Shown: piece by piece, positions 2,558-61,304 of the stretch
Layout of the letters: each line of letters opens with the position of its first letter
Numbering within the stretch: the stretch's first letter is position 1
NCBI GenBank assembly: GCA_002011125.2
Contig: MTMF02000009.1
Location: 1,448,989 to 1,512,988, forward strand
Direction: 5' to 3'
DNA: 64,000 nt
Source: Candidatus Hydrothermarchaeum profundi
GTDB taxonomy: Archaea; Hydrothermarchaeota; Hydrothermarchaeia; Hydrothermarchaeales; Hydrothermarchaeaceae
Made by a program: the position numbers and the translations under genes
Notes under the pieces: generated by a model
What the model saw: the letters and a program-made list of their open reading frames with translations, nothing else
What the model was told of the DNA's origin: nothing
The model's database searches: none

Positions 2558-4594
2558 ATGGAATTAAAGTCCCTTTTGAGGGATAAAAGAGAATATATTT
2601 TATTATTAGCAGTATTCTTAATTGCTATTGCTCTTAGGCTGATTACAGCGAAATATGATAGGCTCCTCGGCGCCGATCCTTGGAGGCATTTAAAGATCGC
2701 TGAGCTGTTACTAGAAACAGGGGAATTTCCTCTTTTTTACTCATATACCTTCTATCCTAGAGTTAGTCTTATTGGCTCTTATTCTGGGCTTTATTATCTG
2801 CCGGTGTACATCTACAAAATATTAGAGGTTTTTGAAGTTTCTTTTTTCAAAGTTTTCCAGCTACTACCAGCCATATTCGGAGCTTTGAGTGTAGCTCCAT
2901 TATACATGCTTGTAAAAGAACTATTTGATAAAAGAGTTGGATTACTCTCTGCGTTGTTGATTGCGATATCTCCTGCGAATCTAGAAAGGAGCCTTGCCGG
3001 ATATTACAGAGGTGACGTATTTATGGTTTTTTTTATGCTTTTAGCGTTCTATTTTTTTGTAATCTCCGTCAAAAGAAACATAGTGTTCTCACTTTTAAGC
3101 GGAATTTTTCTTTTTGTATGCAATCTATTTTGGGATGGCTGGCCTTTTGCCTTTGTCGTGATTTCATTAGCGTTTGTCTTAGGAATAATCTTTAACTATT
3201 TTAAATCCCTATCTTCTAAGAATTTAATAATCGTTTATATAGTATCTTTCACTCTTGGACTATCTCTTATATACATTTATAAGCAGCATTTTTATCAATA
3301 TACGATATGGCATCTTTTAAAGCCTCAGGTAATTTCTGTGGGTAAATTGTTTTTACTCAGTCTACTTGTAGTTTTACTCGAGCCCCTTAATAGGCTTACT
3401 CTACGTAAAAAGGCTCAGATAAAAATGGTTCTTTTTTTCCTTGTTTTAGTGCTCACATCTGCCCTCGCTTATTATTTTGGTTTACTACATAATGTTTTAA
3501 GATTCGCGGATACTCTTATACATTGGAGTACGGGGGTAGAGTCAGCCTCCACATATAGTAAAAATATCACTGAAATGCAAAAAATCACATTGAGCTACTT
3601 ATTTAGGGTCTACTATTTTCCTATACTCCTTCTTCCCTTAGGGTTATTTTCAATTATTCGAAAGCTCGATTTTGGGTCTGTTTTTACGATAGGGTTGTTT
3701 TTTACATCTGTACTGACTTTTATATGGATAGTTAGGTTTACTTTTTTAGCTTCACCTGCTGTGCTAATATTGCTCGCAATAGGAATCGCATCTCTGCCGA
3801 GTAGACGAAAAATAGTTCCCTTCTTCTTGTCATTGCTATTTGCTTCTACTGCCGTTTATTCGTTAGGATTTACATCGGAAGTGGAGCCGTTAATTTATCC
3901 TGAGTTATATCAAGCTTTAAACTGGATTAGGGAAAATACTCCCGATGATGCAGTTATAGGAACATGGTGGCATTATACTGGAGCTGTAAACGCCATAGCG
4001 GATAGAAGGGTGCCAGAGCTAACTACTCCAACCACTATAACACGTGGGTTCGCAACTTTATTATGTACGGATGATGAAGATGAAGCAATAGAAATTGCCA
4101 TTTCACGAGGATTAGATTACATAATCGTTGATAGAGGGCTTTATTTATTATGGAACGTGATTCTAAATTACTGTGATGCTGGGAACCACATTCTTAGAGA
4201 CTCAATGCTAAGCAAGTTTTACAAAGAAGAAAGATTACATAATTTCCGTTTAGAATACAGCAATAACAAAGTTAGGGTATATGCGCCTGTTTATCACTAC
4301 GCTAAGTTTAGGGTGATCAGTGACAAGTTTATCTATAAAGCTGGTCAAAAAATCATTCTCACTTTAAATGGACGTTCCAATATTAGGGAGGTAGGAGATA
4401 TAAAATCAGAGATCAACATTATAGACAGCGAGGATAACTCGGTATTTAGGAAAATTCTTAATCTTAATTTAAACGAGTCTACCACTATGGATATCTCAAT
4501 GAACCTTCCTAAAGGCCGATATAGAGTTAATGTAAATGTCTACGTAGATAAAAGGTATCTCGGTTGGGCTTACACTACATTTGTGGTGATGTAG
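2558..4594 (+). CDS. aglB: STT3/AglB-family oligosaccharyltransferase-like protein (divergent)
   Basis: Multi-TM N-terminal half with ADPWRH, YYRGD and NITEMQ; ALNWIRENTPDDAVIGTWWHY...ADR soluble domain; C-terminal beta-sandwich-like tail. Confidence 0.8.
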   Translation: MELKSLLRDKREYILLLAVFLIAIALRLITAKYDRLLGADPWRHLKIAELLLETGEFPLFYSYTFYPRVSLIGSYSGLYYLPVYIYKILEVFEVSFFKVFQLLPAIFGALSVAPLYMLVKELFDKRVGLLSALLIAISPANLERSLAGYYRGDVFMVFFMLLAFYFFVISVKRNIVFSLLSGIFLFVCNLFWDGWPFAFVVISLAFVLGIIFNYFKSLSSKNLIIVYIVSFTLGLSLIYIYKQHFYQYTIWHLLKPQVISVGKLFLLSLLVVLLEPLNRLTLRKKAQIKMVLFFLVLVLTSALAYYFGLLHNVLRFADTLIHWSTGVESASTYSKNITEMQKITLSYLFRVYYFPILLLPLGLFSIIRKLDFGSVFTIGLFFTSVLTFIWIVRFTFLASPAVLILLAIGIASLPSRRKIVPFFLSLLFASTAVYSLGFTSEVEPLIYPELYQALNWIRENTPDDAVIGTWWHYTGAVNAIADRRVPELTTPTTITRGFATLLCTDDEDEAIEIAISRGLDYIIVDRGLYLLWNVILNYCDAGNHILRDSMLSKFYKEERLHNFRLEYSNNKVRVYAPVYHYAKFRVISDKFIYKAGQKIILTLNGRSNIREVGDIKSEINIIDSEDNSVFRKILNLNLNESTTMDISMNLPKGRYRVNVNVYVDKRYLGWAYTTFVVM

Positions 4595-38325: not shown

Positions 38326-38802
38326 TTAACTCTGAGGCTCGCCAAATCTCTCTTTTAGGATTAAATATAGATAAAGGCGTGTTTTTAGATTGATATTTAA
38401 CCCCCTATATAAGTTATTTTTTGTTAATCCGTCAAAATAAATAGGATATGTGAATATAACATTACTTAATATTCCTTTTTCATCAAATTTGAATTCAAAT
38501 TGATTTTCTTTAAATATAAACTCTTTCCTAAGCTCATCTAGGAACTTTTCGCGTGCATTTTTTTCCATATTTTTGAGCCTTTCTTTAAAGTATGAAGTTA
38601 TAATTATTGGGTCGACAATTAATAATAAATCCCCGATTTGCTTCGGTTGCACAATATGCTGCCTTGTTTGTTTTCCAATTGGGTAATCTATCTTAAAATT
38701 AAAGGTTGCATTTTTATCCTCAATTTTTTCAATTGAATGGCCGTTTTCAGTTATCCACTTATATACAATTTCTTTTGCTTCTTCAGCATCTTTTATTTCC
38801 AT
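38326..38802 (-). CDS. DUF2299-like protein
   Basis: WITE.G, IVQPK, IYFDGLTK motifs; SD GAGGTGA. Confidence 0.7.
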   Translation of the reverse strand: MEIKDAEEAKEIVYKWITENGHSIEKIEDKNATFNFKIDYPIGKQTRQHIVQPKQIGDLLLIVDPIIITSYFKERLKNMEKNAREKFLDELRKEFIFKENQFEFKFDEKGILSNVIFTYPIYFDGLTKNNLYRGLNINLKTRLYLYLILKERFGEPQS

Positions 38803-38847
38803 TTTTACATCACCTCAATAGCATTAAAAGTAAATTATATAATATAA

Positions 38848-38935
38848 AGGCAAAGGCAGGAAGGCTTAAAAAAATTTTTAGTAGGAGGCTATCTGCAGAA
38901 GGAAAGAGGTGGATGAACTTATCCTGCCTTTGCCT
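38848..38935 (-). ncRNA. Candidate small RNA: 14-bp terminal stem enclosing anti-SD motifs
   Basis: Perfect inverted repeat AGGCAAAGGCAGGA / TCCTGCCTTTGCCT; BRE-TATA on the minus strand at 38959-38975. Confidence 0.5.
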
Positions 38936-39136
38936 ATCTGTAATTTAATTAAACTCTAAATATAAAAACCTTTTGAATAATTATCCAAACTATTAGCGAT
39001 ATTAAAAAAATTAATTAGAACTATTTTTGAATATTTTTTCATAATCATTAAAAAAAATTAGACAAAAATATAGAAAGTATATCTATATGGCGGGTTGATG
39101 GATAATAGATCATTTATCTCCTCATAGAAGTATAAT

Positions 39137-39183
39137 AAAAAAATGAGGCAGGGGAACCTTACATATCCATTAGGTTTTCCCCT
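39137..39183 (-). terminator. Hairpin plus oligo-T downstream of the 38-aa ORF
   Basis: AGGGG(AA)AACCT...AGGTTCCCCT followed by GCCTCATTTTTTT on the minus strand. Confidence 0.5.
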
Positions 39184-39199
39184 TTATTTTTAGTGGGAT

Positions 39200-39316
39200 T
39201 TAAAGTTTCTTTAACAGTTCATCCACACTTGGAAGTCCATTAAGCTCGTCTTCATTCATTTCTTCTTTATATGCAGATAGGTCCATTGCAATATCTTTTG
39301 CAGATTTCTCAGCCAT
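39200..39316 (-). CDS. 38-aa acidic small protein (MAEKSAKDIAMDLSAYKEEMNEDELNGLPSVDELLKKL)
   Basis: Strong SD GAGGTGAGG, own TATA (39366-39374) and a terminator hairpin; the track's 100-aa version runs into the tRNA. Confidence 0.7.
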   Translation of the reverse strand: MAEKSAKDIAMDLSAYKEEMNEDELNGLPSVDELLKKL

Positions 39317-39421
39317 TAATTCCTCACCTCTTTCCACTAAATACAAACTGACATTAGAAGTTCCCATATATAAATTTAATTGTAAAAAAAATTCAATAGG
39401 ACTGCTACATTGTATCATGAG

Positions 39422-39516
39422 TGCGGCCACCGGGATTCGAACCCGGGTAGCTAGCTTTTTCCAGCCTTTAGCAAGGCTATGGGAAGCTAGTGTCTTAACC
39501 ACTGGACCATGGCCGC
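39422..39516 (-). tRNA. tRNA-Gly(CCC) with 23-nt intron at 37/38 (39457-39479)
   Basis: Acceptor GCGGCCA/TGGCCGC, T-loop TTCGAAT, anticodon stem CTAGC/GCTAG, perfect BHB (TTCC/GGAA helix, CA^T and AA^A bulges); CCA not encoded. Confidence 0.95.
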
Positions 39517-39556: not shown

Positions 39557-41154
<1,598 letters not shown>

Positions 41155-61208: not shown

Positions 61209-61304
61209 TGGGGGTACTGGGATTTGAACCCAGGTCCGTGGGTTTCTTCCACTTGGAGTGGAACGTCTGGAGCCCACTATGATAGGCCGCTACACCATAC
61301 CCCC
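61209..61304 (-). tRNA. tRNA-Trp(CCA) with 23-nt intron (61244-61266)
   Basis: Acceptor GGGGGTA/TACCCCC, anticodon stem GTGGG/CCCAC, loop CTCCAG^A, T-loop TTCAAAT. Confidence 0.93.

Follow-up and report, generated by a model that had tools for sequence, protein, structure and literature searches.

Here we describe a candidate small RNA (sRNA) gene and its neighbour in a 64,000-nucleotide (nt) stretch of DNA from the archaeon Candidatus Hydrothermarchaeum profundi (GenBank assembly GCA_002011125.2, contig MTMF02000009.1, positions 1,448,989 to 1,512,988 of the forward strand), hereafter the window. Two short units lie in tandem on its minus strand: unit 1, with a micro open reading frame (ORF) of 38 amino acids (aa), and unit 2 (38935-38848), a hairpin with a long loop. 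Comparison with similar loci elsewhere in the genome indicates that unit 2 is quite probably an independent sRNA gene, and one of a family of siblings. The potential of its loop to pair with unit 1 is rare in the genome, and is located next door. Our overall reading, for and against which the arguments are about evenly balanced, is that unit 2 would be a stand-alone sibling sRNA with a loop that pairs to ribosome-binding sites (RBSs), and with the messenger RNA (mRNA) of its neighbour as a private candidate target.

The 12-nt arm of the closing helix of unit 2 recurs 100 kb away as an inverted pair, and a genome search using the stem only recovered five loci: the window copy, C9:1348400-1348472(+), C9:1348605-1348680(+), C9:495267-495336(-) and C8:105493-105566(-). 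The interiors of these copies are nearly unrelated. All five have a B recognition element and TATA box (BRE/TATA) of the CAAAAG-TTTTTATAT type that ends about 25 nt before the helix, on the strand that carries the pyrimidine-rich loop. The family layout consists of this BRE/TATA, a closing helix of 12-15 base pairs (bp) of the GGCAAAGG type, a pyrimidine-rich loop of 40-60 nt and usually a T-run. When the five closing helices are aligned, 96.9% of pair cells are paired, compared with 43-59% for a slid partner; four of the 13 helix pairs are altered on both sides, a count reached by 8 of 500 shuffles, and the G-U pairs of the helix fit the promoter strand only. A covariance model built from the five copies (R1) detected a sixth at C9:193056-193178 (E-value 7.4e-8), independently of its training set, together with weaker loci at E-values of 0.006, 0.4, 0.4 and 3. 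The R1 score of unit 2 itself (105.6 bits) holds by construction, because unit 2 belongs to the training set.

In total the genome contains at least six clear copies and about 13 candidates. The weaker R1 loci and some of the hits from a generic hairpin scan have different helices in the same layout, and are counted here as candidates rather than members; the generic scan was noisy (174 hits, many intragenic), and only its intergenic hits with a TATA-like word were retained. All 13 candidates lie outside ORFs of at least 90 aa, and the weaker ones share loop modules among themselves (one of 19 nt, two of 13 nt and many of 9 nt). An alignment of 10 sequences left the divergent helices out of register, and R1 remained the only covariance model. 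An Rfam 15 search, one of the checks suggested in a first-pass annotation of this locus made from the sequence alone, returned no family for five sibling loci at E-values up to 1 or for unit 2 at E-values up to 10; the scan of the locus matched only transfer RNAs (tRNAs). Outside the window, two of the siblings stand in tandem 130 nt apart within C9:1348400-1348790, the second being followed by a CU-rich tail (TCCTCTCCTCTCCATCC), a T5 run and a convergent tRNA gene.

Near-identical arms at five loci might also be expected of DNA-level repeats, such as miniature inverted-repeat elements or palindromes resembling repetitive extragenic palindromic (REP) sequences, that are not functional transcripts, and R1 does score the reverse strand at two loci (E-values 2e-5 and 2e-4). 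We consider this highly improbable. The interiors of the copies differ almost entirely while their arms change in a compensatory way, with G-U pairs on one strand only; the promoter of each copy keeps a constant spacing on this strand; the flanks that were examined have no target-site duplication; and the loops are strongly strand-asymmetric, with a pyrimidine content of 67-77% in four of the five.

Folding of unit 2 confirmed the 14-bp stem that had been described previously, with a minimum free energy (MFE) of -24.5 kcal/mol (z-score -2.8; 2 of 200 shuffled sequences fold equally well), and the loop is single-stranded in both the predicted MFE and centroid structures. A T7 run within the loop is a possible alternative archaeal termination point, which would give an RNA of about 65 nt lacking the 3′ arm. 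Two other interpretations of this segment were rejected: a C/D-box RNA, whose boxes were not seen by eye, and an 80-aa plus-strand ORF across unit 2, discarded as coding because it lies antisense to the downstream DUF2299 gene and runs through the hairpin. Separately, a 21-nt stretch comprising the 3′ arm and downstream tail (38839-38859) is 90% complementary to 39730-39750 within the Bud32-type kinase ORF; this match is partly AT-rich.

The surroundings of the hairpin are less favourable to a free-standing gene: unit 2 has no T-run after its 3′ arm, and the DUF2299 gene follows in the same direction 47 nt further on, again with no T-run seen between them. The hairpin could accordingly be a cis element, either within a long 5′ untranslated region (UTR) of DUF2299, where the loop sequence CACCTC, a 6-nt complement of the DUF2299 Shine-Dalgarno (SD) sequence GAGGTGA, would sequester that SD, or as a terminator or insulator between unit 1 and DUF2299. 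Such a role is improbable. At least six siblings of the same layout point towards a convergent gene or are placed in antisense orientation between genes, the 60-nt loop is unlike that of a terminator, and the DUF2299 gene has an AT-rich TATA-like stretch of its own (~38835-38847), as well as its GAGGTGA SD, between the hairpin and its ATG. At least six of the 13 candidates lack a co-directional downstream gene, and the class as a whole is therefore not a 5′ UTR. The proposal in the first-pass annotation that unit 2 is a discrete minus-strand sRNA gene thus draws support from these copies, from the promoter spacing of the paralogues and from the covarying helix, although transcription from this promoter and the positions of the RNA ends are predictions.

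The 16S ribosomal RNA of this genome ends in GGATCACCTCCT, and words from this tail, which carries the anti-SD sequence, are enriched in the loops: the five stem-defined loops contain 14 tail pentamers in 249 nt, compared with a mean of 1.7 in random genomic segments, and none of 5000 control sets reaches 14. Several copies repeat the tail in order over 8-11 nt (TCACCTCCTCC, GATCACCTCC), and several of the weaker candidates do so over 9-11 nt. The loop of unit 2 therefore combines predicted accessibility with complementarity to an SD region and with a family-wide enrichment in tail words, and we lean slightly towards the view that unit 2 would act by pairing to SD-type sequences. The distribution of the pentamers is a point against it, since they are uneven among the loops (4, 8 and 2 in three, 0 in the other two); the two loops that lack them are C-rich instead. 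In-order repetition of the tail could alternatively mean that the RNAs serve, not as antisense to mRNA, but as decoys that imitate the 16S 3′ end for a tail-recognising protein, for example a nuclease that cuts the tail or a factor in small-subunit maturation or in initiation. We give this idea the least weight of the alternatives considered, as two of the five core loops contain no tail word, the analyses indicate no protein partner, and the proposal draws on the general biology of tail-binding factors.

Unit 2 is complementary to unit 1 in four places, through exact matches of 11, 9 and 11 nt and a 6-mer. A complementarity scan bore out the earlier observation of an exact 11-nt complement placed on the unit-1 SD (38901-38911 with 39325-39335), and the ACUAAA complement of the adjoining leader (38877-38882 with 39336-39341) and second anti-SD motif GCCUCCU (38889-38883) are also present. 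Two further contacts had been missed, an 11-nt match (38909-38919 with 39216-39226) and a 9-nt match (38889-38897 with 39272-39280), both inside the 38-aa ORF; besides the sRNA gene itself, the word GTGGATGAACT at the former has one other occurrence in the genome. Match statistics were calculated for the 39-nt non-AT core of the loop against the whole genome, on both strands and with self-matches excluded. The core has 767 complementary matches of at least 9 nt and 55 of at least 11 nt, two of the latter falling within the unit-1 transcript of about 210 nt, where arithmetic from the genome count predicts 0.0027. Three or more matches of at least 9 nt within 211 nt occur in only two genomic places, unit 1 (11 + 9 + 11) and a site within a coding sequence. 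When the A/T run of the loop is kept in, 5 of 2998 random segments of 211 nt contain as many as three matches. Co-folding of the sRNA with the whole unit-1 transcript gives a free-energy difference (ddG) of -18.4 kcal/mol; 1 of 400 gene-start controls and none of 300 random segments do as well. These exact-match statistics and controlled co-folding values replaced a genome-wide target ranking of seeded windows with RNA.duplexfold, which was uninformative because it was swamped by extended, imperfect pairing with purine-rich sequence of any kind.

A number of results weigh against our overall reading. Co-folding with the 57-nt start region of unit 1 gives a ddG of -4.8 kcal/mol, and 52 of 400 gene starts with an SD do as well, so that the SD match alone does not single out the neighbour; the special relation claimed in the first-pass annotation holds for the whole transcript, with its three exact matches and 6-mer, and not for the SD and leader by themselves. 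The other genomic place with clustered matches has four of them (9, 9, 9 and 10 nt). The complementary blocks run in the order 4,2,3,1 and so lack colinearity, and 3 nt of the sRNA are common to both 11-mers; not all sites can therefore pair simultaneously, and the two 11-nt contacts would have to be alternative or successive. No complement of at least 10 nt was found when the neighbouring transcript units of five other siblings were searched (two that were listed were discounted as AT-only words or as the CU-rich tail of the sibling itself, P2), and neighbour targeting is therefore not a family habit. Other genuine start regions match the loop as well or better, over 10-12 nt; by Pfam they belong to Holliday-resolvase-like (12 nt, C8), PurP-like, CdhD-like and MobA-like genes. 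The helix covariation, moreover, comes from five paralogues of a single genome.

These results raise the alternative that unit 2 is a real sibling sRNA acting globally on many SDs or on other sRNAs, and that its matches to unit 1 have no regulatory role, having been left behind by a local duplication, inverted or scrambled, or by recombination between nearby stretches of AT-rich intergenic DNA. Besides the matches at other RBSs and the absence of neighbour complementarity in the five siblings, two observations favour it. Across the genome, the loop of unit 2 has its longest complement not in unit 1 but in the loop of the C8 sibling, where 38887-38901 and C8:105538-105552 (minus) match perfectly over 15 nt (CTTCTGCAGATAGCC / GGCTATCTGCAGAAG), a match that might stem from pairing between the two sRNAs or from inversion of a loop module; and units 1 and 2 have same-strand words in common (ACTAAAAAT, CCTGCCT) that hint at common descent. 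However, a simple inverted duplicate would be colinear, whereas the blocks seen here are exact, sharply bounded and scrambled, with one exactly on the SD, and retained pairing sites therefore fit them better than decaying homology does. We regard this alternative as unlikely, although it carries the most weight of the four, followed by the DUF2299 cis element, the DNA repeat and the decoy of the 16S tail. That the neighbouring 38-aa mRNA is the true target of unit 2 is, in our estimation, somewhat short of an even chance. The suggestion that the anti-SD loop may also act on other GGAGG-type mRNAs is supported by the enrichment in tail words and by the matches at other RBSs. One of these, a 10-nt match in the start region of the gene for a CdhD-type subunit of CO dehydrogenase/acetyl-CoA synthase (C9:1815693-1817093), is too short to weigh; this enzyme complex is also a reported target of Methanosarcina mazei sRNA41 (PMC5867862).

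The TATA-to-start distance of archaeal promoters has an established typical spacing, by which transcription of unit 1 would begin near 39345. Its 38-aa ORF, which is preceded by a strong SD at a suitable spacing, is listed by the ORF-calling program inside a longer GTG-started ORF. The product has 10 Asp/Glu residues and 5 Lys, lacks a hydrophobic stretch and matches no Pfam family; the protein atlas gave no lead for it, the best score (0.86) being under the useful range. Besides the protein itself, a search of 1.84 billion representatives returned one homologue, P0002 (46 aa, 62% identity, E-value 2.8e-5), which has the SAKD, SAY and ELNGLPSV block in common with it and forms a single-member cluster on a 130-kb contig of the Joint Genome Institute (JGI). 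Because this distant homologue exists, the ORF is probably coding, and it would be a conserved 38-aa protein of the kind that automated annotation would usually miss or mis-start. No match to a profile of the micro-ORF was obtained in 37 further genomes of the phylum, an alignment-based search for related loci was likewise empty, and a degenerate DNA pattern designed on the conserved residues had no match in metagenome_contigs.

The first-pass annotation had ascribed to this pair a logic similar to type I toxin-antitoxin systems. The analogy fails because the peptide is acidic rather than hydrophobic; it has no Pfam match, the five siblings have no complement of at least 10 nt next door, and nothing in the sequence suggests a toxin role for the product. 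The terminator hairpin described at the end of unit 1 exists but is weak (-13.4 kcal/mol, z-score -0.64), and a scan for bacterial-type terminators at unit 1 found none; the T7 run that follows is the more credible candidate for an archaeal stop signal. We also observed that the 5′ leader of unit 1 (39334-39347) is complementary to its own 3′ UTR (39183-39196) at 12 of 14 positions. The sRNA contains a near copy of this 3′ UTR word (ACTAAAAAT, 38882-38874), and the sRNA and the 3′ UTR could therefore compete for the leader.

The features of the locus are collected in Table 1, and their order on the minus strand is the Bud32-type kinase gene, the tRNA, unit 1, unit 2 and the DUF2299 gene. The elements described earlier for both units were all found in place. 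The exception is the tRNA, which had been labelled tRNA-Gly and is a tRNA-Trp. The window has two tRNAs, Trp(CCA) at 39421-39516 and Leu(CAG) at 61209-61304, each 96 nt long and with intron-like insertions in the anticodon loop. We rejected the idea that the locus is the remnant of a tRNA-linked integration site, the 3′ part of the tRNA having no repeat in the complementarity and repeat scan of the locus. Upstream, a Kae1-like gene (40162-41148) adjoins the Bud32-like gene (39557-40174) with an overlap of 13 nt, and the two are unfused.

Table 1. Features of the unit 1/unit 2 locus (positions in the window)
Feature	Position	Strand	Basis
Bud32-type kinase gene	39557-40174	-	RIO/Pkinase domains (Pfam)
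tRNA-Trp (anticodon CCA) with 26-nt insertion (intron) in anticodon loop; upstream landmark	39421-39516	-	ARAGORN; Rfam tRNA 55.9 bits, E-value 6e-11
Unit-1 TATA box TTTATATAT	39366-39374	-	sequence reading
Unit-1 leader with SD region: TTTAGT (39341-39336), then GGAAAGAGGTG (39335-39325), then AGG; complementary to sRNA 38877-38882 and 38901-38911	39325-39341	-	sequence reading; complementarity scan 11/11
Acidic 38-aa micro-ORF, ATG 39316, stop 39202-39200	39200-39316	-	ORF list; GAGGTGA-type SD 7 nt upstream
Mid-ORF site CTATCTGCA, exact 9-nt complement of sRNA 38889-38897	39272-39280	-	exact-match search
ORF 3′ site GTGGATGAACT, exact 11-nt complement of sRNA 38909-38919	39216-39226	-	complementarity scan
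Unit-1 3′ end: weak hairpin 39183-39150, then CCTGCCTCA, then T7 run 39144-39138	39138-39183	-	folding; sequence reading
Unit-2 BRE/TATA CAAAAGGTTTTTATATT, ending ~24 nt before the helix	38959-38975	-	sequence reading; same motif and spacing at paralogues
Predicted unit-2 sRNA body: 14-bp closing helix (38935-38922 with 38861-38848), 60-nt loop	38848-38935	-	folding
Loop stretch of 19 nt with two overlapping 11-mers, one antisense to the unit-1 SD (CACCTCTTTCC, 38911-38901), the other to the ORF 3′ part (38909-38919)	38901-38919	-	complementarity scan
Loop TGCAGATAG (38889-38897, 9-nt complement to the ORF), then second 16S-tail-like motif GCCTCCT (38889-38883)	38883-38897	-	exact-match search
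Loop ACTAAA, complement of leader 39336-39341	38877-38882	-	sequence reading
T7 run within the unit-2 loop	38868-38874	-	sequence reading
DUF2299 gene, downstream of unit 2	38326-38802	-	Pfam PF10061, E-value 4.3e-21

Searches outside the genome also count against the overall reading. The nearest relatives available for comparison are genomes from another genus, with a completeness of 62-82%. No copy was detected by R1 in 34 further genomes of the order, in each of which only 96 candidates were scored, nor, with filters off, at 13 DUF2299 loci, where the best E-value was 0.88. A search of genome_contigs with the stem pattern gave 96 stretches; among the matches listed all were bacterial and judged unrelated, and the genome studied here may itself be excluded from that collection. 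The 641-nt locus produced only short, low-complexity blastn matches against 40 relatives, neither the micro-ORF nor the locus synteny was found in 34-37 other genomes of the order or phylum, and upstream of the nearest DUF2299 orthologue (47% identity) lies a different gene, with no hairpin found there. The 19-nt loop module, sought in 38 genomes of the phylum, has elsewhere only matches with 2 mismatches, mostly antisense-looking to purine-rich coding sequence. A genome from another family of the order has an intergenic CU-rich word (L147; G019:C16, ~3900-3990, minus) that differs by 2 mismatches from a module common to two of the siblings, with a complementary GGGAAGGAGA about 30 nt on; this site could represent an anti-SD/SD pair acting in cis, or else be distantly related to the family. 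We found no description of such an sRNA family in Rfam or in topic-based full-text searches of the literature. The family appears to be new, while the mechanism proposed for it, RBS masking, is already known.

If our overall reading is correct, the closing helix would keep the pyrimidine-rich loop open, most loops carrying pieces of the 16S tail together with private sequence. The open loop would then pair in trans with purine-rich RBSs and block binding of the 30S subunit. In the window copy, the private candidate target would be the adjoining 38-aa mRNA, contacted through its leader and SD (6 + 11 nt) and through two sites in the ORF (9 and 11 nt), and translation of the 38-aa gene may be switched off by unit 2. 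A wider proposal is a layer of translational control in this sparsely sampled archaeal lineage, in which some ten siblings would mimic the 16S 3′ tail, private sequence would set the targets of each one, siblings such as the window and C8 copies would antagonise each other by RNA-RNA pairing, and a multi-site clamp would act on the mRNA of the adjoining conserved acidic microprotein. We offer this as a conjecture that is itself unlikely to hold in full.

To our knowledge, the archaeal sRNAs for which both a target and a mechanism are known number a handful, nearly all of them from Methanosarcina and the haloarchaea. A multi-copy family with anti-SD loops would, if the reading is true, be a clear archaeal counterpart of the CU-rich sibling sRNAs of bacteria, and an sRNA together with a microprotein mRNA that has four defined contact sites makes a ready-made test pair. 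The mechanism is not a new one, and our evidence is entirely computational, drawn from a single genome. M. mazei sRNA162 is a demonstrated case of RBS masking (PMC3510493), and sRNA154 and sRNA41 are reported ones (PMC5867862). Like unit 2, these are archaeal and intergenic; they are described as independently transcribed, with a single-stranded anti-RBS linker or loop that represses the target (PMC3510493, PMC5867862), and sRNA162 reaches a neighbouring, cis-encoded target and a distant one through different parts of the molecule (PMC3510493, PMC5867862). In contrast, the RNA described here has no sequence or Rfam relation to them, belongs to a multi-copy family whose single long loop is closed by a helix, is known from its sequence alone, and has as candidate target a neighbouring, non-overlapping micro-ORF with several dispersed sites.

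Among bacterial systems, the LhrC1-5 siblings of Listeria monocytogenes offer a similar arrangement, with several paralogues per genome and multiple CU-rich single-stranded regions (PMC5880928) that have been demonstrated to pair with AG-rich SD regions and so to block initiation (PMC5880928). They are of unrelated sequence, fold differently from the unit-2 family, into stem-loops plus a terminator loop, and are induced by a known regulator. RsaE/RoxS of the Firmicutes, of the C-rich type, are comparable to the LhrC siblings. The use of an SD region and a second, distant coding-region site on the same mRNA has a parallel in RNAIII of Staphylococcus aureus acting on coa mRNA (PMC2837412), although RNAIII is a large, multi-domain bacterial RNA, whereas the two 11-nt sites here use overlapping sRNA sequence. 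With type I toxin-antitoxin systems, and with the small-protein mRNA-antisense pairs that are being described in the archaeon M. mazei (bioRxiv 10.1101/2025.10.28.685009), the locus has in common a small ORF that adjoins an RNA complementary to its translation start. The two units are tandem and non-overlapping, with non-colinear complementary blocks of 6, 11, 9 and 11 nt. The locus differs from these pairs in its acidic, non-hydrophobic peptide, in an RNA that is not opposite the ORF and whose siblings lack such a partner, and in complementarity that is divided into short, dispersed blocks.

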